From a virus, in IMG/VR virus record IMGVR_UViG_3300015241_000002, positions 1-64,000 of that record: a DNA stretch of 64,000 nt. One strand, written 5' to 3'. Both the position numbers and the translations under genes were made by a program. The number at the start of each line of letters is the position of its first letter. Position 1 is the first letter of the stretch. Below the pieces are notes generated by a model. The model saw nothing but the letters and a program-made list of their open reading frames with translations. It was not told where the DNA came from and ran no database searches. Positions 4,623 through 49,276 of the stretch are shown one piece after another.

Positions 4623-6512
4623 AAGCTGTAGATGCCATAAGGCAAGTCAAAGCTCTCAATCCTAAGTTTGTAACTATAGACATAGAATGTGGAATAGAAA
4701 AGGATGCATCGTTTGGACATCCAAATGAGTTCGATCTTTTATGTGTTGGAATAGGATACGCAAAAGGCAAGGTATTAGTTATCGGAGAAAATGCTTTAAA
4801 GAAGGATGAAGTTTTAGAGGAGCTTGGGGATCTTTTACGATCAGTGAGGATTGTTTGCCAAAACGGTAAATTTCGATCTAGCAGGACTCTATCTACATTG
4901 CGGTCCATTAAAATTATGGGCAGACACAATGTTAGCGCATTATGTGCTGGACGAGCGTCCTGGTGTTCATGATCTAGAACAAATGTCTATGGAAGATTTG
5001 GGAAGTCCCAATTGGAAAAATACATTAAATAAATATAAAAAGCCTGGAGAATCGTATGCAGTCATACCGAGAGACGTTCTGTATAAATACAATGCTTTTG
5101 ACGTGGCCAATACATATGATTTAATTGAACTATATTTGATGGAGATTGAAGCCCAACAGGAAAAAGATACTTACTTCTTGCTTCAAGGTAAGATGGTTCC
5201 TGGTAAGACGTTGTTGGACGTTCATGATTTTCTGTGTGAAGTCTCTAACGAGTTAATGTTCGTAGAATTGAATGGAATTGGAATTGACCCAGATTACATT
5301 GACGAGCTGGCTGAGAAACTTGAATTCAATATGGGTAATTTGGAAAGATCCATTAACGATATGCTTCCATGGATTAAGTCTGTGGATGAGGACGGTATAC
5401 CAGATGTTGGCCAGAGAGACTATGATAAAAAACTAGGTGGCGTTAATCCTCGTAGTCCTAAGCAGCTTTTGCAAGTGTTCAAAGATTTTGGAATGTATAC
5501 ACAATCTACTGATGCTGATACATGTAAGATGATTATTGAAGTTAAGGGATTAGATTCTACAATTGGAAGATTTTGCGCAACATTATTACAATATAGAATG
5601 GAAGCTAAAGAATATGGAACCTATGTGGACGGGATACGAAAGCGTATCCTTGCTGGTACCACCAGAGTTTATCCAAGTTTCTTGCTCCATGGAACCACTG
5701 AGGGAAGATTATCATGTAGGAATCCGAATCTCCAGAATGTTCCTAGAAAATCTGCCATCAGAAGACTTTTCGTACCTACGAAATCTGAAAATATCTTCGT
5801 TCAAGCCGACTATTCACAGGCTGAACTTCGAGTCCTATGTTGGCTCGCCGGGGATACTTACTTCACTCCAATTTTCAACGAGGGAATAGAAGATATATTC
5901 GATACTCTTTCTGAAAATGTATTGTTTCCTCAATACCCAAAAGCAACTACAGACAAAGAGTTCTTTAAGGAAGTTAGATCGAAATGGGTCAAACCTTTTG
6001 TGTACGGGTTAGCGTATGGTCGTACTGAACATGGAATTGCAGGAGACATTGAAATTGGAATGACGCTCAACGAAGCTAAGCTAACTATGGATAAATTCAT
6101 GAGTGTTATCCCAGAGATAGTTCGTTGGCAAAAAGACATTAAGAGAATAGTTTCCGGTGGCGGTGACCTAGTTACACCATTTGGTAGGCACAGAAGATTC
6201 CATCTTATCACACGGCAAAATCATGACGATGTAATGCGCACTGGTTTGGCTTTCGTACCTGCAAGTACGTCATCAGATCTATGTCTTAGAGCATTTGCTA
6301 GAATGAACCCAGAGTTTAGAGCTAAAAAAATAGCCGTAGTCCGTAACCTGGTCCATGATAGCGTTATTGCAGAGTGTAATGAAAATGATGCTGAAGAGGT
6401 AGGACAGATAATGACTAAATATATGTTAGATTCAGCCCAAGAGCTTGTTGGGAATTATGTAAAATTTGCAGTGGATGTTGAAACGGGTTTTAGTTGGGGG
6501 GATCTCCATTAA
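4619..6512 (+). CDS. polA: DNA polymerase I (family A, 3'-5' exonuclease plus polymerase domains); reading frame broken by a 1-nt shift near 4868-4874
   Basis: Track ORFs 4619-4972 and 4851-6512 overlap in different frames. The first carries Exo I (VTIDIE) and ends in ...VCQNGKF. The second continues DLAGLY...DTMLAHYVLDE. Polymerase motifs are present: RNPNLQNVP, ADYSQAELRVL (motif A), KPFVYGLAYG (motif B) and LVHDSV (motif C). Confidence 0.85.
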
Positions 6513-6956: not shown

Positions 6957-7286
6957 ATGCCTAAGTCATTACAGACGATGTTATCAGAAGTATTTGCAAA
7001 TAACGTAGAGCATGGCTGGTACGAAAGAGATAGACCGTTCAGTGAAGATATTGCATTGCTGACTACAGAGGTTGCCGAAGCTTACGAAGCTTATCGAATC
7101 CGTAGTATGGATGCCTACACAGATCCTAATGGCAAGCCAGATGATGTCAAAAGTGAATTAGCAGATATTCTTATTCGGTTACTCGATACGTGCCAAAGAT
7201 ATAATGTAGATTTGGAATTGGAATACGAACGCAAAATGGCCTATAATAAGACTCGTCCGTATAGGCATGGAAATCGATTAGCATGA
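6957..7286 (+). CDS. MazG-like nucleotide pyrophosphohydrolase (second copy)
   Basis: Internal ATG at 6957. The segments LLTTEVAEAYEAYR...VKSELADILIRLLDTCQRYNVDLELEYERKMAYNKTRPYRHG match the MazG/dimeric dUTPase-like helical signature. Confidence 0.7.
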   Translation: MPKSLQTMLSEVFANNVEHGWYERDRPFSEDIALLTTEVAEAYEAYRIRSMDAYTDPNGKPDDVKSELADILIRLLDTCQRYNVDLELEYERKMAYNKTRPYRHGNRLA

Positions 7287-7798
7287 CCAATTTTAGAATC
7301 TTGGCGGCAGATCCTGGTGGTACAACTGGAATAGCAACCTATTCTGCATTACGCATGACCAATCCTACTACAAATGAATTTGAATATTTTGATGAAGAAT
7401 GGTGGGGTACACAGTTGGGGCCAGAAAAACACCATGATGAACTTGATATGCTTTTAGGTATACAGCACGTACAAAATTATAGAATTGTTTGTGAGTCTTT
7501 CGAATATAGAAATCGTTCACGTGCTGGGTTAGTTTTGGTATCTCAACAGTATATTGGCGTGATTGAAAGATTTGCTCAAGAACGTAATATTCCATTGTTT
7601 ATGCAACCTGCGAGCTTGGGCAAAATTACCAAGAAAAGCTTTGTTAGAAAAGAAAATTTGGAGCGGTTGGGTTTGTGGGTCAAAGGCGGTGCCTCTACTT
7701 ACAATCATCAAATGGATGCTTTCGGTCATCTTTTGCAGTACATGATTAAGAACAATATTCAGAAACAAGAACTATTAGAAAAAGGCTGGTCTAAATAA
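7283..7798 (+). CDS. RuvC-like Holliday junction resolvase
   Basis: 171 aa. The N-terminal ILAADPGGTTGIA supplies the catalytic Asp in a beta-strand and DPG turn, followed by an acidic CESFEY segment, as in phage RuvC-family resolvases. Confidence 0.65.
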   Translation: MTNFRILAADPGGTTGIATYSALRMTNPTTNEFEYFDEEWWGTQLGPEKHHDELDMLLGIQHVQNYRIVCESFEYRNRSRAGLVLVSQQYIGVIERFAQERNIPLFMQPASLGKITKKSFVRKENLERLGLWVKGGASTYNHQMDAFGHLLQYMIKNNIQKQELLEKGWSK

Positions 7799-8248
7799 AT
7801 GGAACTTCGAATGGGATTCTCTGGAACAAGATATGGTATGACTAATGGTCAGTCCAAAAAAGTTGCAGAGATAATTAACTGGTTTAGACCACAAGAATTT
7901 CATCATGGAGATTGCATTGGATCGGATGCAGAAGCTCACGAAATTGTTAGTAAGCACGAATATATTTGGACGGTTGGGCATCCTCCAATAGATGACAGTA
8001 AAAGAGCATTTTGCAAATTTGATCAAGAAAGACTTGCACAGGAATACAAAGCTAGAGATAGAAGAATTGTCATAGAGTCCAATATATTAGTAGCAACACC
8101 AAAAGATCCATTTGAAGTTTTGCATTCGGGAACGTGGACCACAATAAGATATGGTTTGGAAGCAAATATTCCCGTACTTATTGTAAGAGCCGATGGTACT
8201 TTAATGGTTAAGGGCTTGTTTGGGTTAAGCGGAATTCTTGAATATTAA
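7799..8248 (+). CDS. SLOG/DUF2493-like Rossmann-fold protein (tentative)
   Basis: 149 aa. GFSGTRYGMT...HHGDCIGSDAEAH...GHPP resembles the GTR.G...HGG..G.D pattern of DprA/DUF2493-type SLOG proteins. The call is weak. Confidence 0.4.
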   Translation: MELRMGFSGTRYGMTNGQSKKVAEIINWFRPQEFHHGDCIGSDAEAHEIVSKHEYIWTVGHPPIDDSKRAFCKFDQERLAQEYKARDRRIVIESNILVATPKDPFEVLHSGTWTTIRYGLEANIPVLIVRADGTLMVKGLFGLSGILEY

Positions 8249-8440
8249 ATGGATAAAGAAGCATTAACTATGGAACAGATAGAATCTGCAAAAAGAATGT
8301 GCGAAGATATTTTTACTAGAAGTCATTGGACAGCAGAGGAAAGGACTAATATATTGGAGATGTTAGGAATACAGCCATATGTGTCTGCTGTACACAAAAA
8401 GCAATATGCCCCTAAAAAGAAAAGAGTTAGAAATAAATGA
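8249..8440 (+). CDS. hypothetical protein
   Basis: 63-aa ORF directly abutting the upstream stop. Confidence 0.55.
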   Translation: MDKEALTMEQIESAKRMCEDIFTRSHWTAEERTNILEMLGIQPYVSAVHKKQYAPKKKRVRNK

Positions 8441-8622
8441 CAGCAATAACAGTAGGTGAGCTTCGCGAGAAGATGGTAACTCTACCTGACTCTGCTATAG
8501 TGGTAGCAGAAGAACTACCAGCCTTCAATTACATTACAGATAAATTCGATGTAGTTAGTGCAATGGCAATTGGAGCTAGAACTGATGATCCAGGTTTAGT
8601 CCTTAAACTTAAGTTGATGTGA
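8437..8622 (+). CDS. hypothetical protein
   Basis: 61-aa ORF with an ATGA overlap. Confidence 0.55.
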   Translation: MTAITVGELREKMVTLPDSAIVVAEELPAFNYITDKFDVVSAMAIGARTDDPGLVLKLKLM

Positions 8623-8623
8623 T

Positions 8624-9217
8624 ATGAAGATTTGGTATGATACAGAATTCTTAGAAGATGGAAAGACTATTGAATTAATATCGATTGGGATGGTTCGTGA
8701 GGACGGAGAAGAATATTACGCAGTCGTTGATGTAGGAGCAATAACGTGGTTACGAATTACTCAGCATGATTGGCTAATGCGAAATGTAATTCCAAGTTTA
8801 CCATTGCAAAATAGAACATCACTCGACACTTGGTTATCTGTTCCAGCCAATTCATACCCCAAGCCGTCAACTAGCCTTCTCTCACTTGATTTTGCAGATT
8901 CAAGAGTGAAGCCTAAGAGAGTAATCGCTAATGAGGTTAGAGATTTCATTAGTGAGGTTGACAGGCCAGAACTATGGGCTTGGTATGCAGCATACGACCA
9001 CGTAGCATTGTGCCAACTGTGGGGTCCTATGGTTGCAATACATGGCACGAAGATTCCATTCTGGACTAGCGATCTCAAGCAAGAATGCAATCGTTTAGGT
9101 AATCCTACAGTTCCGCAACAGTTAGCAGGTCAGCACAATGCTTTAGCAGATGCCAAACACAATCGTGAGATTGATGAATTTTTAATGCAGTATAAGAGTG
9201 TTAAGAGGTCACCATGA
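8624..9217 (+). CDS. 3'-5' exoribonuclease, Rv2179c-like (DEDDh)
   Basis: 197 aa. WYDTEFLEDGKTIELISIGMV, ELWAWYAAYDHVALCQLWGPM and HNALADAKHN closely follow the sequence I remember for M. tuberculosis Rv2179c. Confidence 0.85.
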   Translation: MKIWYDTEFLEDGKTIELISIGMVREDGEEYYAVVDVGAITWLRITQHDWLMRNVIPSLPLQNRTSLDTWLSVPANSYPKPSTSLLSLDFADSRVKPKRVIANEVRDFISEVDRPELWAWYAAYDHVALCQLWGPMVAIHGTKIPFWTSDLKQECNRLGNPTVPQQLAGQHNALADAKHNREIDEFLMQYKSVKRSP

Positions 9218-9507
9218 CACAAGAAGATAAAGAACGTTACGTAGCTGCTATGCATGGCGTGCAATCTGGCGTAGCTATGAAAATGAATTGGGATACTAAA
9301 GAAACTGAGCCAAAAAGTCTCAGAGTCGGAGTTAATTCTGCACTAGTAGACTTCAGTGCTCTACAAAAATTATTAATAGATAAGGGTATAATCACAGAAG
9401 ACGAACTATATTCTGCACTTGCAGATATGGCAGAACTTGAAGTAGCATCATATGAAGACGAAATCAATTCACACTACAACACTAATTGGACTATCGAGTT
9501 AAAATAG
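9214..9507 (+). CDS. hypothetical protein
   Basis: 97-aa ORF with an ATGA overlap. It is the last gene of the left + strand block. Confidence 0.6.
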   Translation: MTQEDKERYVAAMHGVQSGVAMKMNWDTKETEPKSLRVGVNSALVDFSALQKLLIDKGIITEDELYSALADMAELEVASYEDEINSHYNTNWTIELK

Positions 9508-9511
9508 AAAG

Positions 9512-9577
9512 ACCACGACCCCATTCAATTGAGGGATGACACGGGGAGCTAGTGTCAAAATTGAATGGGGTCGTGGT
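9512..9577. terminator. large hairpin at the point where the + and - strand blocks converge (candidate bidirectional terminator)
   Basis: A perfect 19-bp inverted repeat: ACCACGACCCCATTCAATT (9512-9530) and AATTGAATGGGGTCGTGGT (9559-9577), with a 28-nt loop. It starts 5 nt after the stop at 9507. Confidence 0.6.
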
Positions 9578-9652
9578 GGTATATGTTGAGGTTATAAGAA
9601 AAAACGGAACTTCGAGGTTAGCACATGGCAAAGCCCCACAGGGGGCAGGAGG

Positions 9653-9820
9653 CTAACGACGGCGCGGTATGTCATCTGGGTTAAAGAAGGATAAAGCCCA
9701 AAAAGCTATCCCCAAGTAAAATAGATTTACAACATGATCGTTGACTGTAGGACCCTTGACAGCAAAGGCAGCGAACCCGATCAATAGAGCCGCAACTAGA
9801 ATACATAATGCCCTGAACAT
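9653..9820 (-). CDS. small membrane protein (55 aa), possibly lysis-associated
   Basis: Translated by hand. AGGAG lies upstream of the ATG at 9820. MFRALCILVAALLIGFAAFAV...LFYLGIAFWALSFF gives two hydrophobic segments. The gene follows the holin-like gene. Confidence 0.45.
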   Translation of the reverse strand: MFRALCILVAALLIGFAAFAVKGPTVNDHVVNLFYLGIAFWALSFFNPDDIPRRR

Positions 9821-9854
9821 TATGGCTCCTCGTTATAGAGGTTAGCGAGAACCA

Positions 9855-10046
9855 CTATACTTGCTTATTAGCGGGTGCAAGATATGTCGTAACTGCGACA
9901 AACACACCGGCAGCAATGGCGGCACCAATATCTGCAGCAATAGTCCACGTAGTAGCTCCAGTAGCGAGAGGTACGAAAGCTGCCACACCAGCAGCTATAC
10001 CTGCAGCGGCGGATTTATAAGCTTTTTGAATGCTAGTAATATTCAT
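9855..10046 (-). CDS. holin-like membrane protein
   Basis: 63 aa with two Ala/Gly-rich hydrophobic helices. It overlaps the stop of the upstream lysin gene by 4 nt. Confidence 0.5.
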   Translation of the reverse strand: MNITSIQKAYKSAAAGIAAGVAAFVPLATGATTWTIAADIGAAIAAGVFVAVTTYLAPANKQV

Positions 10047-11059
10047 ACTGGATTCACTCCTGTATCTCCATGGACTGTCACATTGACGTCTACGACTGAA
10101 GCGTTCAACGCCTCTGTAATAATAGCCTTGATCTGGTCACCTGTAAGTCCGGTCTTCTCAGCTAACGCATTGATAGTCGCAGTCTGTGCGGCAAGTACCT
10201 TACCGAACGGATTAGTTGTGAATCCAGAGAAGTCGTTCAACGTACCCTTCTCTGCACCTGTACCATCCATTGAGTCAGCTGGATAAAGTGCATTAGTCTG
10301 TCCGGTCAATACCATCAGCACAGCCCGTGGGACATACTGCTTGATGTGATCGTCGACAGCGGCAAAGTGTTTGTCCAAGTAAGTCTTAGTTGAGGCGTCC
10401 AATGTAATGTCCTCCTTAGTTGACGCGTAGGGCGAACCATCAGGCCACCAAGCGCGCAATCCATGTGGATCAGTAATCGTATTGATATCGGTACCAGCTA
10501 CTGGTGTGTTTAACCACTTACCGTCGATGTCATGTGATTGAACCATGCATACATGCGGCGATTTGATGTTGTATGGCATATTGAATGTAGAACCCATCAA
10601 CCAGTGCTGACCAGTTAGATATCCATTTGCACACAGATACTCAATTAGGTTTGATTGACCATAGATCTGGCAAATGTAGTGGCCTGCTAACCCTGCCTTC
10701 ACTTGATTAATCTTGGCACCCATCTCATGGAACCTATCGGCAGATGTAAACGTATCAAAGCTAAATGCACACTGAACTGTTCCATCGTCTGGTACACCAA
10801 GTGCACGACACGCAGCTATTGATTCTACACCTGCCGCCTTAGCCTCAGCCATAGTGGAGTCAAGGAAGAAGCTTGCCTTCCGCTCCCTATTAGGCAAGAA
10901 CCCCATTCCTAACTGTCGGGCCTTATCTACGCGGGCCTTATTAATTGGGTCAAATCCACCAGGCTTACCTACGATATAGCCTGTAATGGCTATCGCGCCG
11001 TGAACCTTTGCATCATTTAGATTGAACGGTGATGCTCCATCGTAAGCGAACTGAGCCAT
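10043..11059 (-). CDS. endolysin candidate, DUF1906 / Rv2525c-like glycoside-hydrolase-like domain
   Basis: 338 aa. The N-terminal 200 aa (AITGYIVGKPGGFDPI...GMGFLPNRE...AFSFDTF...IYGQSNLIEY) resemble the DUF1906 TIM-barrel family. The gene lies between the minor tail genes and the holin-like gene. Confidence 0.55.
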   Translation of the reverse strand: MAQFAYDGASPFNLNDAKVHGAIAITGYIVGKPGGFDPINKARVDKARQLGMGFLPNRERKASFFLDSTMAEAKAAGVESIAACRALGVPDDGTVQCAFSFDTFTSADRFHEMGAKINQVKAGLAGHYICQIYGQSNLIEYLCANGYLTGQHWLMGSTFNMPYNIKSPHVCMVQSHDIDGKWLNTPVAGTDINTITDPHGLRAWWPDGSPYASTKEDITLDASTKTYLDKHFAAVDDHIKQYVPRAVLMVLTGQTNALYPADSMDGTGAEKGTLNDFSGFTTNPFGKVLAAQTATINALAEKTGLTGDQIKAIITEALNASVVDVNVTVHGDTGVNPV

Positions 11060-11080: not shown

Positions 11081-11443
11081 TTACAAACCGATGCACACAT
11101 ATGCAACGGTGCAGTTATGGTTACCAGCAGCGTTGGCGCCACTCGTTGTAAAAATTCTCCAGTCAAATCCTGTAACAGTAATATTGCCAATAGTCAAACC
11201 TAGTGATGAAGGACCTCCAGCGCTATCGGCCTGAATCTCAGTGAATACCAAGGGTGGATCTTGGAAGGTTACACCAAAAGTAGTTGAACCAGAGGTGAAT
11301 GATGTACCCGCAACCAAATTAGCACTGAATGCATTAGTAAATGGAAATTCAGGATTAGTTCTAAGGTTCGTTATAGAACGTTGTAGATCGCTAAAAAGGT
11401 CATATAATGTATCGACTGTCATCTTAGGCCTAGGTACTGGCAT
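11081..11443 (-). CDS. minor tail / baseplate-associated protein (hypothetical)
   Basis: 120-aa ORF in the tail module, start/stop coupled to the upstream gene. Confidence 0.45.
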   Translation of the reverse strand: MPVPRPKMTVDTLYDLFSDLQRSITNLRTNPEFPFTNAFSANLVAGTSFTSGSTTFGVTFQDPPLVFTEIQADSAGGPSSLGLTIGNITVTGFDWRIFTTSGANAAGNHNCTVAYVCIGL

Positions 11444-12510
11444 TATGCTACCTCTGCCGTATCCTTAGTATAAATGACTGTCGTTAGCTTGTCCCCTTGA
11501 CTGATAGTATTTTGCCAACCAACTACACGGATGAGGTTGTTGTACTGTACATATTCGTCGTTAATTATTACAGTGAACTGTGATCCAAAATCAAAGTCCT
11601 TAATAGGCGTTAATACTCTACTTACAAGAGCAGGTATAATCTTAGTCGTTGCTGTAGCCTTGACCTGACTTGTAGCAGAGTTATTCAAAGCTGTTAGGTT
11701 GCTTAGATGCGAACCACGTTCTATAATTTGGTAGAGAGCATCGTATGCTGTTTGATTGGCTGCATCAACTGCGTTACCAATCACATTATTACTATTAGCT
11801 ATGTCGTAGTCATTACCTATTGCCTGTGCATTGTACTGTACAGAATAGCCATCCATGTTACCACCATACTCTAAAGTATTTGATAGAGCGGCAGCTGGCT
11901 TAATCTTTCCTCCATACAACTGTAGAACATGTGACGCACCGACAGTGCGGAAGAAAAAGTCTACACCGTCAGTGCTAGTCGATGTAGCATCTATCAAGTC
12001 GAGAATGAAGTTCCTATCTATGGCTCTATATGTAGGTGACATAGTTTGAGCATTGCTTGTTACCTTATTAGTAGTCATTTGCGTAGAGCGAATACTGTTA
12101 ACATAAGCGATTAGGTTGATAATAATGTCAGCACCGCCCTGTGCTGAGTATACCTTATTAGTCTTGAGTTCACGCTTTGCTAAGTAGGATAATGGATCTT
12201 GAGCTGCACAAGACAAGACACCAGTACTACTTGCAGGTGTAGCATCCCATAGAGGACCCGCAAATACTGGATCATCTTGACTCACCTTATTATCATAGAA
12301 CCAAAGTTCATGCTTACCTGGGTATAAGTTACTTTGATTGACCTGAGAATAGCCTCTATAAGGTATTTCACAACGGAATGATTGGCCACTAACGTTGAGC
12401 ATCTGTTCATATTGCACATTCCTGTAAGGTAGTGCGGCTATGAAATCACCATCATGGTCATGGGATTCAAGTTTGAATCTAGAATTGAGTGCCCCTAGAG
12501 CTGCCGGCAT
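11443..12510 (-). CDS. minor tail protein
   Basis: 355-aa ORF, the second gene downstream of the tape measure. The call rests on position only. Confidence 0.5.
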   Translation of the reverse strand: MPAALGALNSRFKLESHDHDGDFIAALPYRNVQYEQMLNVSGQSFRCEIPYRGYSQVNQSNLYPGKHELWFYDNKVSQDDPVFAGPLWDATPASSTGVLSCAAQDPLSYLAKRELKTNKVYSAQGGADIIINLIAYVNSIRSTQMTTNKVTSNAQTMSPTYRAIDRNFILDLIDATSTSTDGVDFFFRTVGASHVLQLYGGKIKPAAALSNTLEYGGNMDGYSVQYNAQAIGNDYDIANSNNVIGNAVDAANQTAYDALYQIIERGSHLSNLTALNNSATSQVKATATTKIIPALVSRVLTPIKDFDFGSQFTVIINDEYVQYNNLIRVVGWQNTISQGDKLTTVIYTKDTAEVA

Positions 12511-14132: not shown

Positions 14133-17100
14133 TAGCCAACTCTCCTACTGAATTCCCAACCTAAGTCGGCTGCATGTTTAACAGGATCAATCTCTTGTGT
14201 TGTTATGTAGAAGTTCTGAGAAGGGCCTGTGCCACGTCCAGGCGTCACGCTGACCGTCTCAGCTCCACGCTCACCCACGCCGATGACGGTAGGCGTGTCG
14301 AATACAGTCGGCGACATCCCACCGCCGTACCAGTGTGGAGAGCGGTTTAGCCAGGTACCATAAGCGTTGGATGGGGAACCATAACGTCCTCTAATATAGT
14401 TGAGACCCCAGTTAATCTGAGTAGCTGGGTTAGTTAACCAGTCGGATCCGGAAGAAGCCATCTTACTAGCAGGGAGTGCCTGAGGAATTCCATAGGCACC
14501 ACTAGATGGATTTTTAGCAAATTGGGACCAGCCAGAATTACCTGTAAGAAAGATTCTTCCATCCTGTTCGGCCGTCCAAGAACCAAGCTCTGTAGTCACA
14601 CACCACACATCTTGTCTTTCTAACAATTTCGTAATTTGGAACTTACTAATATATGGTACTGTCATTCCAATTCTTCCAGCAGACTCCCCATGTGCTGTAC
14701 GTGATGGTTTAAATCCTTCTAAATAAACAGCAAGTTTAATAGCATCTTGCATTTCACCATTATTTTGTGTGATAGTTGTATGCCCACGATCACCATTCTG
14801 CCCTATGCTATGTCCTTCTGCATCTATCATTGCTGCAAGCCATGCAGAACGTTGCTCGATAGATAGTCCTAGTATAAACTGTTCTAGACCATAATCCATA
14901 ATTTGGGATCTTTTTACCAAATCTGTAACGTAATGGCGTGGAAGCAGGAAAATATGTTCTGGAAGCCAATTAGCTTTAGAATTACTGCGATTGGAAATTG
15001 TTTCAGTATAGTCTATACCTACCAACATAGCACGTATTCTAACAATTTGGCTTAACTTGGACTGATAAATTCTACCATCCCACTTACCATTGGATGTTTC
15101 GGTAAGGGTTCCATCTCCCTGTATCCACGCCAATACTGCTGCATCTTGAAGCGAAAGTGTCGGGATGCCATCAGTATTGGCAATGGCGGATAACCGAATT
15201 CGATGACCCCAACGAAGTTCATCTGTTCGTACAAATCCCGGAACTTTCTGCGCCCCGCCCTTTTTAATTACAGATTCCAACGGCTCACTCCACCAACGAT
15301 GGCCAGGAGTTACATCAACTTGCCAATTACGATTTCCTAAACGTTGAACTTCACGGTCTTCGTAATGGACAATACGAGTTATTCGTGTCCACTCGTTGCA
15401 ATCTAAAATAGGATTATAACCAAGTGTTTCGTCCCCAATTTCCACCTCGCCATGAGATAGCCAGCCGCGTTTGGTGAGAATTCGAGTTCGTAGTGGAACA
15501 CATTCGCCATTCCAGAGATTTATAAGGGATCCCATCTGATCTAATCCCCAACCAAATCTACCTAACTGACCCTTAGCATAAGCTTGATTAGCTAGAGCAC
15601 CCGCTCCAGTAACATTTCCTTGAGAACCAACTGACGAAGCCGCAGCTTTCGCAGCAGCCTTACGAGCCTTACCACCCAAATCATCGATCATACTTCTAAT
15701 TACTTGGTCTACCTTTTGATATCCACCACTGGATATATCCTTAATAATTCCACCTGGCATAGATCCAAGTGCAGCCTTAACTGGAGCTTCTGCCAAGTTA
15801 AGACCAGCTCTTAACATGGCTGCAACACCCTTGCGAAGTCCGCCCTCCACAGCGCCGACTGTACTCTTTAGAGCACCAGCAATACCTCCAATTATACCTC
15901 CCCCAATAAACATACCAGACTTGTCCATTGATCTTCTATTGGAAAACATGGAATTTATTCTGTCAATTCCACGCTTTCCGCCAATCGCACGAACAGCTTC
16001 TGGTATTAATATGCCCTCGCCGCCAGAGAACATATAAGCTGGCAACCGTATATTATCCTTACCTGGAGAGTAACCGGGAAGAACTCCACCTCTAGCAAAG
16101 CCTCTAGTATTAGGTGTATGTGCGGGGCCCTTAGCATTAGGGTCAGCAATAGTTCCTATCTTATCAATGTGGAAATGGCCTGGGAGGTGACCAAGCAGAG
16201 CGTTAATTCCACCGATAAAGGCATTGATTACAGAAATTATGCCATTGAGAGCACCTCTAATTGCTCTCTGTACTCCATTCCAAATGCTGGAAAATACATT
16301 TGACATTCCAGACCATAAACTTCTCCAACCATTACTTATGGCAGTAAATGTTGGGCTTATTACGTTACGCCATATAGCCTTAATGGAATTACCTGCCGCT
16401 GTAAATACAGGCTTTCCTATGTTATCCCAAATTCCACGAATTAGATTCCAAGTACCTCTCCAAACTGTAATCATTGCATTCCATATAACTCTGATACTAG
16501 TCCACATAAATTTAATACTAGACAATATGAAATCAAATATGGGTCGGCCTACATTATTCCATGTAGCCTTCATCAAGTTCCAAGTAGCCCTCCATAAACT
16601 GACCTGAGCACGCCAAATAATCTTGACACCGCTCCACATAAATCTAACAGTATCAAGTATAGCAGTAAATATAGGATGGCCTACCGTATTCCAGATAGCA
16701 GAAACAACGTCCCAAGTAATCTGCCATGTCTTTTTTAGAGCCTCAAAAATAAGTTTAATTTGAATACCTAATACAGCATAGAAAAATAATCCAATTCCAC
16801 GGATTACTGGCATGACCGCGTTCCATACATTTATTATAGCATGCCATAAATTACTCCAAGCATGGTCTAAATTATCTAATGCATGTAATACATTGTCAAA
16901 AGAATGCACTACATTCTGCCAAGCGTGCGCTATTGCCATAACAACTTCATTTACAGCCGTACTTATTGCTTTGTATATAGCATCCCAAGTAGACTTAACT
17001 GCATGGTATGCATTATCCCAAGCATGGACAACATTACTAGCTGCATGCGCTACAGCCTTGTAAACATCATTCCAGATCCTTACGGCAAATGACGATATTT

Positions 17101-18574
17101 GCTTCCAATATTTAATTACAAAGAATACTGCAGCAGCTATGGCAATTATAGCAAGTATAATTAAAGCAATTATTCCAAGCAATGGCGCCGCACCTATCTC
17201 GAACGCAGCCGCAGCGGCGGTCAATATAAGGAAGGCACCAGCCATAGCAATAATAACACCAACCAGTATCATTGCAACAGCTGTAGCAGCAAGAATATAA
17301 GTAATCCATTTCTTGACAGTCGGATTGAGCTTGTTAAACCAATTTAGTACAGCACTAAGCGCCTTCACTAAAGCTAGCTTGACAGGGATCAAATTATTAC
17401 CCAGCTCAATACGCATTGCCTGATATTGGTTTTTCAGCTGCTGTACCTTCGCCTGTGGGGTATTTGACATAACCTTGTAAGCAGAAGATGCAGCTCCGCT
17501 AGAGTTATGCATATCATTGGTCATTTCTTTCAACAAACCATTGGAATCACTAATTCCAAGGTTGAAGAAACGCATAGCTTGAATGGTACCGCCAGCACCC
17601 TTGAATATTTCATTAAGCTTAATAGCACGAGCTACTGGAGTTAATTTGCCTAACTTGTCTCGCATCTCAGAGACAATGTCTACCATGGGGCGGAATTTAC
17701 CGGACGCATCCTGAACTTCAATACCCATATCATGGAGATTTTTAATAGCAGTCGGCTTAGACAACGCATCCAAAGCACGAGATGCAGAGGCGGAAGCCAT
17801 AGCTGCGCTAAGTCCATTACGGGTTAGGAAGGCCATCATGCCGGCTAAGTCTTCGATAGACTGTCCAGCCTTCAAAGCTGAGGGCACAGCTCGACCAATG
17901 ACAGCAGCAAATTGCGAATAAGTACCGACGCCTTTTCTGACCAACTGGAACAAGACATCACTAACATGAGTAACTTGCTGAGCTGGTAATTTATAGGCGT
18001 TAAGTACGGCTATAATAGCTCTACCAGCTGTGGCCATATCGGTAGCGCCGCCCACAGAGGCCTGAGCTATAGCCTTAAGAATTTTCTCCGCACCAGGACC
18101 ATTAGTGTCCAAAGAGGAGAAAATATCGTATAAGGATTTTTGAATATCGTCAAAAGCTACTGGGACTGTTCTCGCTACTCGGAGTCCGATATCAGATAAA
18201 TCCTTGAAACTTACCTTAGCCTTGTCAACCTGTGTCAGTGTTAAAGAGACTTGCTGGTTATATTTAATGGCCTCATTGGTCATCTTGTTAAAGGCATTAA
18301 CACCAATGCCCCCAACAATGGCCATACCAGCACCTATGGTAATAAGATTTTTGCCTCTTGCTATTTGAGCCACCGTTGCTGCTTTGGCTGCTTTAGCAGA
18401 TTTTAAATCTGCAGCCGCTTGGGAGCCTGCAACTTTAATTCCTGCCGCCTGCATTTCATTAACACGCGCCTGTGCAATGGCAATGGAATTAAGTTGTTTA
18501 GAAGTACTAGCTAAGGCAATCGCAGCTTCATTTCTGGCACGCAAAATGAGGTAGATTTCGCTGGCTCCAAACAT
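14132..18574 (-). CDS. tape measure protein with a lytic-transglycosylase-like motif interrupted by an intein
   Basis: 1480 aa. The N-terminus is coiled-coil, followed by a hydrophobic block (ILAATAVAMILVGVIIAMAG...) and Trp-rich repeats (IWN.V....W). The spliced C-terminal region would read NLWNGE/SGWSQFAKNPSSGAYGIPQ. The gene follows the G/G-T chaperones. Confidence 0.9.
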   Translation of the reverse strand: MFGASEIYLILRARNEAAIALASTSKQLNSIAIAQARVNEMQAAGIKVAGSQAAADLKSAKAAKAATVAQIARGKNLITIGAGMAIVGGIGVNAFNKMTNEAIKYNQQVSLTLTQVDKAKVSFKDLSDIGLRVARTVPVAFDDIQKSLYDIFSSLDTNGPGAEKILKAIAQASVGGATDMATAGRAIIAVLNAYKLPAQQVTHVSDVLFQLVRKGVGTYSQFAAVIGRAVPSALKAGQSIEDLAGMMAFLTRNGLSAAMASASASRALDALSKPTAIKNLHDMGIEVQDASGKFRPMVDIVSEMRDKLGKLTPVARAIKLNEIFKGAGGTIQAMRFFNLGISDSNGLLKEMTNDMHNSSGAASSAYKVMSNTPQAKVQQLKNQYQAMRIELGNNLIPVKLALVKALSAVLNWFNKLNPTVKKWITYILAATAVAMILVGVIIAMAGAFLILTAAAAAFEIGAAPLLGIIALIILAIIAIAAAVFFVIKYWKQISSFAVRIWNDVYKAVAHAASNVVHAWDNAYHAVKSTWDAIYKAISTAVNEVVMAIAHAWQNVVHSFDNVLHALDNLDHAWSNLWHAIINVWNAVMPVIRGIGLFFYAVLGIQIKLIFEALKKTWQITWDVVSAIWNTVGHPIFTAILDTVRFMWSGVKIIWRAQVSLWRATWNLMKATWNNVGRPIFDFILSSIKFMWTSIRVIWNAMITVWRGTWNLIRGIWDNIGKPVFTAAGNSIKAIWRNVISPTFTAISNGWRSLWSGMSNVFSSIWNGVQRAIRGALNGIISVINAFIGGINALLGHLPGHFHIDKIGTIADPNAKGPAHTPNTRGFARGGVLPGYSPGKDNIRLPAYMFSGGEGILIPEAVRAIGGKRGIDRINSMFSNRRSMDKSGMFIGGGIIGGIAGALKSTVGAVEGGLRKGVAAMLRAGLNLAEAPVKAALGSMPGGIIKDISSGGYQKVDQVIRSMIDDLGGKARKAAAKAAASSVGSQGNVTGAGALANQAYAKGQLGRFGWGLDQMGSLINLWNGECVPLRTRILTKRGWLSHGEVEIGDETLGYNPILDCNEWTRITRIVHYEDREVQRLGNRNWQVDVTPGHRWWSEPLESVIKKGGAQKVPGFVRTDELRWGHRIRLSAIANTDGIPTLSLQDAAVLAWIQGDGTLTETSNGKWDGRIYQSKLSQIVRIRAMLVGIDYTETISNRSNSKANWLPEHIFLLPRHYVTDLVKRSQIMDYGLEQFILGLSIEQRSAWLAAMIDAEGHSIGQNGDRGHTTITQNNGEMQDAIKLAVYLEGFKPSRTAHGESAGRIGMTVPYISKFQITKLLERQDVWCVTTELGSWTAEQDGRIFLTGNSGWSQFAKNPSSGAYGIPQALPASKMASSGSDWLTNPATQINWGLNYIRGRYGSPSNAYGTWLNRSPHWYGGGMSPTVFDTPTVIGVGERGAETVSVTPGRGTGPSQNFYITTQEIDPVKHAADLGWEFSRRVG
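14537..15502 (-). mobile_element. intein (322 aa) with LAGLIDADG homing-endonuclease domain, inside the tape measure protein
   Basis: The N-terminal splice junction is GE/CVPLRTRILT (Cys1). Block B is TPGHRWW. Two dodecapeptide motifs are present (LAWIQGDGT and LAAMIDAEGH). Block F is VWCVTTELGSWTA. The C-terminal junction is IFLTGN/S (Asn then Ser+1). The joined exteins restore an E-S-GW...NPSSGAYG.PQ transglycosylase-like motif. Confidence 0.8.
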
Positions 18575-26882: not shown

Positions 26883-29800
26883 CTACCTATTTTCTATAGC
26901 CGCTATGTTCCAAACCGGAATGGTAGATCCAATATCCCATTTTGTTTCTATCTGACCCATTACCCATACAGGTTCTAAATTACCAGTAATGTAAGACGGG
27001 AATTGTACGTTGACAATTATAGAGACGTTGCCAACTTGTTGCTGAGATGCAATCCCAAACGCTGTGATGGTTTGTGTAAGTAGGACTCTAGCAATTCCGA
27101 CTAATTCGCCAGATTTAATACCAAATGGAGATATCGTAACGCTACCTGTTGTAACTGTTACGTTACCAACTCGTTCCCCAGATACAATCCCTACTGGAGT
27201 AACTACACTAGCACCTACAGATATACTTGGGTTACCAAAACCTTCTCCACTACTTATCCCAAAGGCTGTGATAGTAACACTGCCGGCAGTTATAGAAGGA
27301 TTGCCTACACTATCACTACTGCTTATACCTGCAGGATTAATACTTGGAGCAGTTACTGAGATACTTATATTACCAACTACCTCAGAACTTCTCACACCGA
27401 ATGGGGCCAACGTCTGAGCCACGCTCAGAGCCCCTACAGCCTCGCCTGACGCTATACCTATAGGGCTGACCGTGACCGATCCTGGCGTGGCCGTGGCGTT
27501 GCCGACAGACTGCCCAGAGTCAATTCCAAATGCATTAATAGACTGTGCTAATTGAACTAGAACATTACCTATAGAACTAGTATCAACAATACCAGAAGCG
27601 TTTATGGTTACGGATCCTGGCTGGACAGAACTATTTCCAATGGTTTCTGAAGATTTAATTCCAAATGGAGATATAGTAGCGATGGAACTGATTGTTGCAT
27701 TTCCAATAATTTCGGAGGATTTAATTCCACTAGCAGAAATTGTAACTGCGCCCGGGGAGACTGTAACGTTGCCTACAGTCTCTCCATCAACAATACCAAA
27801 TGGACTTATTGTAACAGCACCAGTAGTTACACTAATATTGCCTATTTTTTCAGAAGAGAGTAATCCATAAGGATTGATATTACTAGAAGCAAGATTAGTG
27901 TGATTGATAGCTATAGGGCCGCCAGAATCTAAGATTCCAGCATTTTGTGAAACAAATTCCCATCGATAAGAATCAGGCCTAAGATACAGACGAAGGTACC
28001 CAAACCATTGAGAATTTAGTTGATCATAAGCACCCGTTTGTAGAGAGTTAGGCGATCCAGATTCATTTCTAGTGGGCACTCCAGTATGAAGTCCAGAACC
28101 TCCTGTACCGACTACAAACGATTTGATTCCATTACTATCTATGGAAGGGTTAGTAGTTGAAGACGTTCCACGTTCAAACTTGGGGAATCTTTGATATGAG
28201 TGACAATGACCCTCGAATACTATACTACACCCAGCATCATAAAGTAAGTCCCAGAATGTCTGGACGGTTATATCATCCCCAGTAGATCCAGTATTTCCAT
28301 CAGAATATCTAGGGTGATGCCAGAAAGCAATAATAGGCTTACCAGTGTTAGCCGCTAAATCAGATTGCAACCAGGCATATTGTGCAGATGAAGAATCGTG
28401 AGCTGTTTGAGAGTCAGAATCCAATGCAATAATATGCCAACCTGTAGTTGGCGAGTCAAAGCTATAATAGTGTTGTGGTGAGTGAGCTTGTGTACCCCAA
28501 TAGGTATCATACTGAGTAAGATCACCAGGAACCCAATCATGGTTACCAGGAGTTGGCTCCAACCTCGCTTTAATAGCTCCATACATTGTATCAAAGAAAC
28601 CATATTGCGCAGTAGTTCCATCATTAGCAAGGTCACCTGGTAGTAAAACCATAATTGGATTGTCTGCTACAACCTTCGCAGCAACTACAGACGGCGGGGG
28701 GTTAACGCCGGCACCAGGTTGCATATCTGCAACGACTATTAGGAAATCTTCTCGTTCAACTCCAAGCTTAGACTGGAGGAATCTAGCATTTGATGGCCCC
28801 TTACCTGGGTGTAACTGGGATGCAATAAGTCCTGGACCAGATATTACTAAAGGACCAGAAGCTGGACCAATAAATCCCTGTATACCAGTTCTTATAGCAA
28901 TTTGGTTGATGTACTGATCACACCAGTTACCAGTAGATGAAACCTTACCAAGGATCATTACGCCTGAGATAGCGTTAACAGTCGCGGTGAGTGTGTCAAA
29001 TGTATCTACTGGACTTGCAGTGTCATCCCCAATATACAAAGCATAGTGGAATTCAGATCCAGCCGCATTCCACCAAGCTTCCAACCTATACTGAGTATTA
29101 GCCAATAACGTATATGTCGAAGTATAAACTACTGTACTGTTAAGAGAAACAAAAGGATGTGCAGATGTGTTAACTCCAACATAGTTAGCACCATTGCCAC
29201 CCAACTGAACCCACTGCACTGAAGATGTTGGAGCAAGTGTACCAACGAAATATGCGTACGCACGTACGGCAACAACTGCGATGGCGGAAGTACTTAACTG
29301 TAATCTGCACTGAGTACCGGTCTGTGCAGGCAAGAAATAATCTTGAGTACTATCCCACGGATGGGTATTGTCAAAGGTTGGAGAATCTACTATGGCACTA
29401 AATGCAGTATTAGTTCCTCCACCTGAATTACCAGTTGTAACTACTGTTCCATTAGATTGTCCAGCCTGTGCCGCATCGTTAGTAACTGTAATTACTGGAC
29501 CTATTACTGCAGTCCCAATTCTTTCACTACTAGCAATCCCAACAGGACTTATAGTAACAGAACCTTGAGCTACTGTGAGATTCCCTACACTGTCACTAGC
29601 CGCAATTCCAAATGGGCTAATCGTTTGATCCGCAATAGGAGCAATCTGAGCCCCAAGTGGTGTTGCAATGAAGTTAAATTTATTATGTGGTCCGAGAAGT
29701 CCTGGGAAGACTAAGCTAGAAACCATACCAACCACAGAAACAAGTGGACCAGGCTGTGCAGTATCACTAAAAGCCACATCATCATACCATGTTGACCAGT

Positions 29801-30425
29801 TAGCCGTCATGGTCACTGCTGATGAGTGACCGAATCGAACGTCACTAACAAGTGCCGTAGTAGCTCCACCTGTAGCGGAAATCGAGCCCCCACTATCCGG
29901 TGTATTCGTCTCTAGATTTCCGCCAGAATAAATGCGTGCTGCCTGATCAGCAGTACTAGTGGTGATGTTAGTAACATCCCACTCGACCCGGCACCATTGA
30001 TTAAGTGGAATTGCGGCAGTACTAATTGCAAGTTGTGTACCGACATTGTTAAGAATGCGAATCGTGCCAGCAACGTTAATTTGCAATGCTGCTTGAGTCG
30101 CAGCCGATCCAATCATTCCAGCAATACGAGTTGCTAGAGTGGGATATGCAGTTATATATATGTAGAACCGCATAAACGCATTAGCTACAGGTGTTGGGCT
30201 TATACCAGCACCTGAATAGTTTTGATTAGAAGTACAAGAAACCCCACTTATTAGAGTGTTCTTGATAGCAGTTAGACCAGAGTGCACTTGTGCATTGTCG
30301 TAAATACAAGTAGCACCTGCACCGCTAAGACCTACAACAGTAAATTGATTAGGACCAGTAGAGTTAGAATTGGATACAGTCGTGCCTTGCGTGCCTTCAC
30401 ATGTATTTGAAAGATTATCAGCCAC
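26883..30425 (-). CDS. large fibre-like protein with calcineurin-like metallophosphoesterase domain and tandem 22-23-aa repeats
   Basis: 1180 aa, GTG start preceded by GAGGTGA. The central region carries the phosphoesterase motifs VVADMQPG, PGDLANDG, GNHDW, FWHHPRYS and GHCHSYQR. It has 13 C-terminal and 2 upstream copies of a VTISPFGI.SSE.IGN.-type repeat. Confidence 0.7.
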   Translation of the reverse strand: MADNLSNTCEGTQGTTVSNSNSTGPNQFTVVGLSGAGATCIYDNAQVHSGLTAIKNTLISGVSCTSNQNYSGAGISPTPVANAFMRFYIYITAYPTLATRIAGMIGSAATQAALQINVAGTIRILNNVGTQLAISTAAIPLNQWCRVEWDVTNITTSTADQAARIYSGGNLETNTPDSGGSISATGGATTALVSDVRFGHSSAVTMTANWSTWYDDVAFSDTAQPGPLVSVVGMVSSLVFPGLLGPHNKFNFIATPLGAQIAPIADQTISPFGIAASDSVGNLTVAQGSVTISPVGIASSERIGTAVIGPVITVTNDAAQAGQSNGTVVTTGNSGGGTNTAFSAIVDSPTFDNTHPWDSTQDYFLPAQTGTQCRLQLSTSAIAVVAVRAYAYFVGTLAPTSSVQWVQLGGNGANYVGVNTSAHPFVSLNSTVVYTSTYTLLANTQYRLEAWWNAAGSEFHYALYIGDDTASPVDTFDTLTATVNAISGVMILGKVSSTGNWCDQYINQIAIRTGIQGFIGPASGPLVISGPGLIASQLHPGKGPSNARFLQSKLGVEREDFLIVVADMQPGAGVNPPPSVVAAKVVADNPIMVLLPGDLANDGTTAQYGFFDTMYGAIKARLEPTPGNHDWVPGDLTQYDTYWGTQAHSPQHYYSFDSPTTGWHIIALDSDSQTAHDSSSAQYAWLQSDLAANTGKPIIAFWHHPRYSDGNTGSTGDDITVQTFWDLLYDAGCSIVFEGHCHSYQRFPKFERGTSSTTNPSIDSNGIKSFVVGTGGSGLHTGVPTRNESGSPNSLQTGAYDQLNSQWFGYLRLYLRPDSYRWEFVSQNAGILDSGGPIAINHTNLASSNINPYGLLSSEKIGNISVTTGAVTISPFGIVDGETVGNVTVSPGAVTISASGIKSSEIIGNATISSIATISPFGIKSSETIGNSSVQPGSVTINASGIVDTSSIGNVLVQLAQSINAFGIDSGQSVGNATATPGSVTVSPIGIASGEAVGALSVAQTLAPFGVRSSEVVGNISISVTAPSINPAGISSSDSVGNPSITAGSVTITAFGISSGEGFGNPSISVGASVVTPVGIVSGERVGNVTVTTGSVTISPFGIKSGELVGIARVLLTQTITAFGIASQQQVGNVSIIVNVQFPSYITGNLEPVWVMGQIETKWDIGSTIPVWNIAAIENR
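27020..27885 (-). repeat. in-frame tandem repeat array (about 13 units of 22-23 codons) at the C-terminus of the 1180-aa protein
   Basis: Successive units include NINPYGLLSSEKIGNISVTTGA, VTISPFGIVDGETVGNVTVSPGA and VTISASGIKSSEIIGNATISSIA, continuing to TITAFGIASQQQVGNVSIIVNVQ. Boundaries are approximate. Confidence 0.75.
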
Positions 30426-46740: not shown

Positions 46741-46822
46741 GGGGATGTGCTGGAATTGGTTTACAGAGTGCCCTTAAAAGGCATCGCCGAAAGGCTTACG
46801 GGTTCGAATCCCGTCATCCCTA
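46741..46822 (+). tRNA. tRNA-Leu(UAA): tRNA-Leu, anticodon UAA (type II, long variable arm)
   Basis: Cloverleaf folded by hand. The acceptor is GGGGATG/CATCCCT (G1-U72 wobble). The D-arm is CTG-GAATTGGTTTA-CAG. The anticodon arm is GTGCC-CTTAAAA-GGCAT. The variable arm contains GCC-GAAA-GGC. The T-arm is ACGGG-TTCGAAT-CCCGT. CCA is not encoded. Confidence 0.85.
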
Positions 46823-47127
46823 CTGTAGGAAGCAATTAGGTACCTAAGAGAGCGACAGCTAGACCCTACAAAGCTCTAGTGCTTCCGTTGTAGGCTAGTA
46901 AGGTAGTACATACCTGGAAATAACAATAGCTTCCCTGGCTTATTTATAGGTTGGGCAGTCAGGGCAGGGAGCGCGGCTTGGAAAAGTTGCCATGAAAGTT
47001 TGTGGAAAAGCCAGGCTACAGCGATTGCAAAGCATCGTAACGCGCACGAGCTAAGCGTAGGTAGCTACTGTGGTTACTATTTTTTATTATAGGCTACGGT
47101 AAGCTCTTAGCTTGGAGCAAACCCGTT

Positions 47128-49161: not shown

Positions 49162-49235
49162 GGGGGTATAGCTCAGCGGATTAGAGCGAGACTCTTCTAA
49201 AGTCTAGGTCGGGAGTTCGAATCTCCCTACCCCCG
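49162..49235 (+). tRNA. tRNA-Arg(UCU): tRNA-Arg, anticodon UCU
   Basis: Cloverleaf folded by hand. The acceptor is GGGGGTA/TACCCCC. The D-arm is GCTC-AGCGGATTA-GAGC. The anticodon arm is AGACT-CTTCTAA-AGTCT. The variable loop is AGGTC. The T-arm is GGGAG-TTCGAAT-CTCCC. Confidence 0.9.
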
Positions 49236-49276
49236 CGTAACTATTTAAATAAAAACTAAGAGAAAGAAGGTGAACA

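Follow-up and report, generated by a model that had tools for sequence, protein, structure and literature searches.

A LAGLIDADG intein at a previously undescribed insertion site in the tape measure protein of an uncultured phage

Inteins are known mainly from ATPases and from enzymes of DNA metabolism. In the virus recorded in IMG/VR as IMGVR_UViG_3300015241_000002, an insert of 322 amino acids (aa) carrying two LAGLIDADG motifs is found instead in the predicted gene of the tape measure protein, which raises the questions of whether this insert is an intein, which activity it interrupts and by which route it would leave its host protein. The stretch analysed comprises positions 1 to 64,000 of the record and is hereafter called the window. 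The feature is a LAGLIDADG intein located in a type of extein that has already been seen, the tape measure protein, at an insertion site which was previously undescribed. That the insert is an intein at all is close to certain, and it is very probably a functional full-length class 1 intein with a homing endonuclease, interrupting the SLT-like hydrolase domain which the tape measure protein of a siphophage carries.

A preliminary description of the locus, made from its letters alone, had placed an intein at 14537-15502. These coordinates are exact and delimit 322 aa in frame within the tape measure protein, read from the minus strand; a reading of 14537-15502 on the plus strand was rejected, its translation being full of stops. 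The insert reads CVPLRT...IFLTGN, is preceded by ...LINLWNGE and is followed by SGWSQFAKNPSSGAYGIPQ. All the motifs quoted earlier are present, namely TPGH(RW), LAWIQGDG, LAAMIDAEG, VWCVTTELGSW (aa 299-309) and a terminal Asn followed by Ser. The features of the gene are as follows, with the block numbering taken from PMC5222942:

14132..18574, minus strand: tape measure protein precursor gene, one uninterrupted open reading frame (ORF) of 1480 aa plus stop.
15503..18574, minus strand: N-extein, aa 1-1024, ending ...LINLWNGE (Glu1024 codon 15503-15505).
14537..15502, minus strand: intein of 322 aa, precursor aa 1025-1346, delimited by homology, an AlphaFold (AF2) model and Foldseek.
15461..15502, minus strand: block A, CVPLRTRILTKRGW (Cys1 codon 15500-15502; Cys1 in 155/155 aligned family N-termini).
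15293..15310, minus strand: block B, TPGHRW, intein aa 65-70 (Thr65 at B:7, His68 at B:10, Trp70 at B:12).
14648..15166, minus strand: LAGLIDADG homing endonuclease domain, approximately intein aa 113-285 (Foldseek match to I-DmoI; PF14528).
15110..15133, minus strand: LAGLIDADG motif 1, LAWIQGDG, intein aa 124-131, predicted catalytic Asp130, at the end of model helix 118-130.
14813..14839, minus strand: LAGLIDADG motif 2, LAAMIDAEG, intein aa 222-230, predicted catalytic Glu229, at the end of model helix 215-229.
14567..14608, minus strand: block F, VWCVTTELGSWTAE, intein aa 299-312 (Cys301 at F:4).
14537..14554, minus strand: block G, IFLTGN (Thr320 at G:5, Gly321 at G:6, Asn322 at G:7).
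14135..14536, minus strand: C-extein, aa 1347-1480, beginning SGWSQFAKNPSSGAYGIPQ (Ser+1, i.e., Ser1347, codon 14534-14536).
14327..15571, minus strand: APF-C-terminal / SLT-like peptidoglycan hydrolase domain, with its N part at 15503-15571, its C part at 14327-14536 and the intein in between.

The AF2 model of the insert, built with a 31-sequence alignment, reached a pLDDT of 93.8 and a pTM of 0.92 and consists of a HINT splicing domain together with a double-LAGLIDADG endonuclease. When this model was compared with the PDB by Foldseek, the top 16 matches were all endonuclease-containing inteins (E=1.6e-16 to 3.9e-8), led by TliVMA (7qsu, E=1.6e-16), PI-PfuI (1dq3), PhoVMA, PI-SceI (1vde) and PI-TkoII, and the next match was I-DmoI, a LAGLIDADG enzyme that stands alone. 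As a single-sequence query against the PDB the intein returned noise only, and a profile of the family was required to recover the Spl DnaX mini-intein (7cfv, E ~2e-5 to 3e-5) and the class 3 AceL NrdHF intein (6zgq, E=0.0015), the alignment putting TPxHRW on block B of both (TGNH and SPNHRM, respectively). The insert sequence has homologues in 39 proteins (best E=2.7e-93), and a family profile search over 1.84 billion representative proteins gave 7898 matches at E<=1e-3, with 1187 representatives passing the stricter limit of E<=1e-30. Homologues at these levels, together with structural matches to E=1.6e-16, put the resemblance far outside chance, and a domain that recurs in frame in unrelated proteins, each time with these bounds, has the appearance of an intein. 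It has C1, T65-x-x-H68, N322, S+1, a HINT fold and the in-frame position of an insertion that is missing from close homologues, in agreement with the LAGLIDADG intein proposed earlier. The alternative of a bacterial intein-like (BIL) domain was rejected, as the insert occupies a conserved site, contains an endonuclease domain and is followed by Ser+1; the BIL structure 2lwy matches the shared N-lobe only (E=0.0045).

The endonuclease domain taken separately was matched by Foldseek to I-DmoI (E ~1e-7, TMt ~0.56) and displays the two helices, each with an acidic residue at its end, of a double-motif LAGLIDADG enzyme. The Pfam family PF14528 matched the insert at E=5.6e-4 and 20.6 bits, slightly under its cut-off of 22.5. 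Within the intein family, D130 and G131, A228, E229 and G230 are invariant or nearly so, while Gln147, Lys149 and Gln246 are nearly invariant and are intact in the window copy.

Removal of the insert restores ...LWNGE|SGW...SGAYGIPQ, as the preliminary description had claimed. Thousands of homologues were found with the spliced C-terminal 364 aa, and among the best 120 of them the junction is crossed without a gap in 119, all of which read E|S (119/119). The alignment to intein-less tape measure homologues that had been proposed as a check hence gives a clean insertion point, and the same is seen in DNA. The protein P0040, which has no insert, is 86% identical in aa over 310 aa, and its contig (L009) aligns with the intein-deleted window DNA in one block, at 80% nucleotide (nt) identity over 1006 nts, straight through the junction; its intein-less E|S-coding site reads ...CTCATCAATCTTTGGAATGGCGAG|AGCGGCTGGAATCAATTTGCTAGA.... 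A conserved, non-splicing domain of tape measure proteins was rejected on the strength of these close homologues without insert (119/120 and the L009 allele). A related 67-kb phage contig (L001) is intein-less too. In the latter (ENA ERZ25039533 contig_26737, 7148-10651), the tape measure region is made of three consecutive ORFs of 407, 523 and 216 aa, which either frameshift errors or a truly split gene could explain. A second phage contig (L004) carries an intein at the identical E|S site, 49% identical to that of the window in an extein that is 51% identical, and the intein-bearing protein is encoded directly upstream of the Dit gene, where the end of the tape measure gene is placed. Splicing of the window protein is predicted to give the ligated junction ...LINLWNGE-SGWSQFAK..., with the junction peptide LINLWNGESGWSQFAK.

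The domain restored in this way matched the profile NF052397 (aggregation-promoting factor C-terminal-like, or APF-like) with 105.1 bits over profile positions 4-80 in the spliced form, against 92.1 bits over positions 12-80 in the unspliced form, for a cut-off of 40. The SLT profile PF01464 was matched by the spliced form only, at 21.3 bits, which is exactly its cut-off. Every one of the aligned domains of this kind (22/22) has the Glu-Ser pair, which stands at the end of helix 10-24 in a domain model of moderate confidence (pLDDT 78.7). Foldseek searches with this model ranked lytic transglycosylases first, in 7 of 10 matches, none of them significant (E=2.6-7.2), and the spliced domain searched against the PDB, both as a single sequence and as a profile, returned only spurious matches to ribosomal L2 and to a WD40 'VKLWN' stretch and no solved relative. 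The preliminary description had called the site the catalytic E-S of a transglycosylase-like domain. The invariance of the pair and the SLT match speak for this claim, whereas the borderline score of that match and the fold matches at E>=2.6 qualify it; judged from its sequence, Glu1024-Ser1347 is the probable catalytic E-S of an SLT-like domain. Because the insert splits this invariant pair at the helix-to-loop transition of a small domain, the unspliced protein would almost certainly be devoid of hydrolase activity.

The choice of such a site appears again across the family. Junction motifs were sorted by regular expressions, so that the classes are approximate: in a set of 118 junctions, at least 72 are SLT-type, 10 are M15/VanY-like, 2 are NlpC/P60 and 5 belong to DNA polymerase A, and several of those left 'unassigned' are visibly SLT too. 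At least nine distinct insertion sites are used within hydrolase domains, and E|SG[WG] is used by 10 representatives. One protein of 2211 aa (P0161) has two family inteins in a single APF-like hydrolase domain, at E|SGW, i.e., the site of the window, and at YIL|STYG. In several other representatives the profile matched 2-4 stretches, so that these proteins might have more than one intein each. The 150 best family members are mostly 1200-2600 aa long, and the intein is found at ~88% of the length after splicing. These long metagenomic host proteins appear to be tape measure proteins, and a Pfam check of five long family proteins found the tape measure domain PF10145 in two of them.

Among phage genomes, tblastn recovered full-length relatives in the tape measure proteins of the Gordonia phages Mcklovin and Twinkle, in the DNA polymerases of Pseudomonas KIL phages and of E. 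coli phapecoctaviruses, and in a portal protein and a TerL of Gordonia phages. The presence of full-length copies in unrelated hosts points to mobility of the family. The relatives from cultured phages that were inspected (the Mcklovin tape measure protein, two DNA polymerases, the portal protein and TerL) all start with Cys, end in ...T-x-N and continue with Ser, Thr or Cys. In Pseudomonas phage vB_PsyM_KIL3 (L005, KU130128.1 59313-62567), the annotated coding sequence of the DNA polymerase joins two pieces on either side of a family intein, which starts with Cys1, has FC in block F and ends in TGN|C, the depositors having apparently taken the insert for an intervening sequence. Among the closest relatives of the window intein (P0001-P0021), most have ~400-430 aa and contain a Cys/His-rich insertion after block B with the consensus CPECGW..RG....RG...H....HG, which may be a zinc-binding DNA-recognition module; the window copy, at 322 aa, is without it.

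Tape measure proteins were recently reported as a new extein class in a survey of actinobacteriophage inteins, with 3 (BearBQ, Twinkle and Mcklovin) among 784, all of class 1 and with a LAGLIDADG endonuclease (bioRxiv 10.1101/2025.01.02.630785). Mcklovin and Twinkle, which are Gordonia phages of cluster CZ4, and BearBQ share with the window the type of host protein, but these phages are unrelated to that of the window at the DNA level (megablast, no match). The Mcklovin intein belongs to the same family as that of the window, to which it is 27.6% identical along its entire length (E=6e-22 by tblastn, E=5e-27 by local BLASTP), and the two have in common the start CVPL..ILT.RGWL, an NHRW block B and the end VWC.TTEL.TWTA...LT.N|S. 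Their sites differ, the Mcklovin intein being found at ...GTNADH|C...TSN|SDHVHW with a penultimate Ser, in contrast to ...LWNGE|C...TGN|SGW in the SLT-like domain of the window. A search of the literature for inteins in SLT/transglycosylase or other peptidoglycan hydrolase active sites, or in tail proteins, found nothing relevant beyond this 2025 preprint. PI-SceI, PI-PfuI and TliVMA resemble the window intein in their two-domain layout, in which a double-LAGLIDADG endonuclease interrupts the HINT domain (TM-score 0.60-0.68, E=1.6e-16 to 1e-8). They differ from it in sequence (10-15% identity), in length (361-454 residues in the crystals), in their extra DNA-recognition regions and in their hosts, namely ATPase and ribonucleotide reductase proteins from archaea or yeast.

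How would such an intein splice? Residue counts were taken from a family alignment anchored by a hidden Markov model (HMM), with a different denominator at each position. Cys1 is found in 155/155 sequences, the block B His in 192/194, Trp at B:12 in 181/192, Cys at F:4 in 183/188, Thr at G:5 in 184/186, Gly at G:6 in 182/186 and Asn at G:7 in 169/179. At +1, the HMM-aligned C-termini have Ser (146) or Thr (25), hence Ser/Thr in 171/171, and never Cys; 5 of 125 family members examined by a separate motif search do have Cys+1, and distant relatives in DNA polymerases also have Cys+1. The window copy is intact at C1, T65, H68, N322 and S+1 as well as at D130, E229, Q147 and K149 of the endonuclease. 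As expected for class 1, it has a nucleophile at position 1; the residues that usually assist class 1 splicing are replaced, F:4 being Cys301 rather than Asp and G:6 being Gly321 rather than His, for which functional exceptions are documented. The penultimate Gly, singled out by the preliminary description as a departure from the usual His, is indeed present and is no anomaly, being the rule of the family. What had escaped that description is that Trp70 (B:12), Cys301 (F:4) and Thr320 (G:5), with Ser/Thr at +1, make up the full WCT signature of class 3 inteins.

A characterized, distantly related point of comparison is the mycobacteriophage Bethlehem RDF intein, of a phosphoesterase, for which Kelley et al. 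2016 (PMC5050341) found splicing to completion, a G316H mutant (Gly to His) that is slower and accumulates precursor, and toxicity of the intact endonuclease upon cloning in E. coli. Like that of the window, it has Cys1, Cys at F:4, the end ...VWC...HLTGN|S with a penultimate Gly and a LAGLIDADG endonuclease, and homology of the two is seen both by BLASTP (E=1e-6 over 200 aa) and with the family HMMs, which detect the two lobes (E=3e-8 for the N-lobe). Unlike that of the window, it reads TANHRV with Val at B:12, shares only ~24% identity and resides in a protein of DNA metabolism and recombination directionality, which is not a virion protein. Since Gly is the family rule and the Bethlehem intein splices fast with it, the penultimate Gly of the window intein is compatible with splicing. 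Similarly, the class 3 AceL NrdHF intein splices fast without a His at G:6 or F:13, and this makes the lack of both the G:6 and the block F His compatible with fast splicing. The class 3 inteins MP-Be DnaB, Msm/Mch DnaB-1 and AceL NrdHF share with that of the window the Trp at B:12, Cys at F:4, Thr at G:5, Ser/Thr at +1, the spacing and the phage association, but they have no nucleophile at position 1, whereas Cys1 is invariant in the window family. Class 3 hosts are mostly P-loop/helicase-type proteins (PMC2807308), in contrast to the peptidoglycan hydrolase domains that dominate the window family.

The canonical class 1 route, started by Cys1, is rated the most likely on the ground that many different extein contexts all retain Cys1, a conservation which argues that Cys1 would be the working nucleophile. 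Several observations weigh against a functional class 1 intein in a hydrolase domain. The intein has neither a penultimate His nor the usual Asp at F:4, nor any His in block F; its invariant WCT with Ser/Thr at +1 is the class 3 signature, so that the first nucleophile might be Cys301 instead of Cys1; the catalytic role of the Glu has behind it the invariance of the pair and a borderline SLT match, with lytic transglycosylase folds matched at E>=2.6; and a foreign composition of the intein was looked for in GC content (0.422, against 0.430 for the N-extein) and in codon usage (cosine 0.867, against 0.906+-0.021) and none was seen, hence no sign of a recent arrival. According to the rival route, of class 3 or mixed type, the same intein would be spliced by attack of Cys301, activated by His68 and Thr320 and structurally supported by Trp70, on the scissile bond of the N-terminal junction, giving a branched thioester at block F from which the N-extein would pass to Ser+1, while Cys1 would then be either dispensable or redundant, or else serve as first station in a relay of thioesters. 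Tori and Perler reportedly tested, in 2011, WCT inteins beginning with Ser or Cys. The WCT triplet and the Ser/Thr +1 are complete and nearly invariant in the family, His68 and position 70 have the same numbering as in AceL NrdHF, the 21 residues from Cys F:4 to Asn G:7 equal the spacing in Msm DnaB-1 and Mle DnaB (PMC5222942), and the triplet co-varies strongly with the class 3 mechanism (Tori et al. 2010). For class 3, Tori and Perler 2016 (PMC5222942) state that Cys/Ser/Thr at the N-terminus 'is not required', and class 3 inteins were partly defined by the missing nucleophile at position 1 (PMC2807308), a definition that the window family, with its invariant Cys1, does not fit. A Cys1 kept in every aligned sequence over many extein contexts is hard to explain if it is dispensable; moreover, class 1 is the assignment given both to the experimentally tested Bethlehem RDF intein and to that of the Mcklovin tape measure protein, and grafting WCT onto a class 1 intein gave no class 3 splicing (PMC7664689). 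The class 3 or mixed route is considered improbable but not negligible.

A broader reading, somewhat less improbable although still doubtful as a whole, takes the window intein as a member of a very large natural clade that combines Cys1 with the full class 3 signature and lacks the block F and G His, intermediate between class 1 and class 3 and specialized on hydrolases. According to this reading, two nucleophiles might be used alternatively or in sequence, from Cys1 to Cys301 to Ser+1; Cys1 and Cys301 should be close together in the active site, and a Cys1-Cys301 disulfide might make the maturation of the tape measure hydrolase conditional on the redox state. A decayed or domesticated intein would be a different matter: the insert would no longer splice or would only cleave, or it would persist as a lasting part of its host protein; instead or in addition, its endonuclease would be dead. 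The small size of the window copy relative to its closest relatives, its missing Cys/His-rich insertion and a composition fully ameliorated to the host genome could be taken this way, and degenerate relatives do exist, such as P0010, with ALGAKW for TPxHRW and the end LVGG|T, and P0018, which starts with Gly. However, all catalytic positions for splicing and for the endonuclease are intact in the window copy and its ORF is uninterrupted; the insert parts the invariant Glu-Ser pair of a small domain, whose unspliced hydrolase would almost certainly be inactive, and it is missing from close homologues, hence is no conserved domain of tape measure proteins. Decay is accordingly held to be very improbable.

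Under the preferred reading, that of a functional class 1 intein, established intein chemistry would have splicing start with an N-S acyl shift at Cys1, aided by Thr65 and His68. The thioester would then be attacked by Ser+1, Asn322 would cyclize without a penultimate His, and an O-N shift would restore the E-S peptide bond. The expected product is a tape measure protein of 1158 aa, the length obtained by removing the intein in silico, with an intact hydrolase domain. Given the architecture, splicing presumably precedes enclosure of the protein in it, because a globular insert of 36 kDa should not fit. In a co-infection, the predicted action of the endonuclease is to cleave alleles without intein at their E|S-coding site, whereupon the intein would be copied in; such homing would explain the coexistence of intein-plus and intein-minus alleles in related phages.

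The identity of the host protein is given by matches to PF10145 (aa 132-324, E=5e-30) and TIGR01760 (aa 92-433, E=2.6e-37), by which it is classified as a tape measure protein. Its gene belongs to a structural module on the minus strand in the order terminase, portal, protease, major head protein, tape measure and minor tail protein, the gene of the latter (11443-12510, minus strand) being located two genes beyond the tape measure gene and the head genes on the opposite side. The window has a GC content of ~43%. A megablast search of the tape measure gene against GenBank phages returned no match and no close phage relative, and the assembly collection contains no record identical to the precursor protein; the best relatives of the phage are actinobacteriophages, which are distant (29% identity for the portal protein), and the source genome looks like that of an uncultured siphophage. 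No further intein of the same family was found when the whole window was scanned. The family A DNA polymerase and the SNF2 helicase encoded in the window (4851-6512 and 57969-59507, respectively, plus strand) are intein-free, while the family targets DNA polymerase A motifs elsewhere. The window also contains two phage tRNAs on the plus strand, Leu(TAA) at 46741-46823 and Arg(TCT) at 49162-49236. In the head-gene module, an ORF of 1180 aa (26883-30425, minus strand) has at aa 585-744 a metallophosphoesterase domain of the calcineurin-like type (PF00149), while its C-terminal region matches PHROG 'minor tail protein' families, a combination and a position which are unusual.

The window intein splits the presumed catalytic dyad of a virion-borne wall hydrolase, so that the tail and its wall-piercing activity would depend on protein splicing. 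The family suggests that this is not a one-off, since hundreds to thousands of related inteins are found in SLT, M15 and NlpC/P60 motifs of very long metagenomic proteins. For annotation, the consequence is that tape measure proteins of this kind will be given a wrong size by gene callers and annotators, and their hydrolase domains will be overlooked. Compact inteins that would splice onto Ser+1 without an assisting His are also of interest for protein engineering. The combination of Cys1 with WCT bears on the debate on whether class 3 inteins diverged from class 1 or have a convergent origin, and the wider pattern, a Cys1 and WCT clade specialized on the wall hydrolase motifs of tail proteins, merits follow-up. 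If this pattern is true, the active-site motifs of the peptidoglycan hydrolases (SLT, M15 and NlpC/P60) in tail proteins would constitute a second, unrecognized niche of inteins beside nucleotide-binding proteins.

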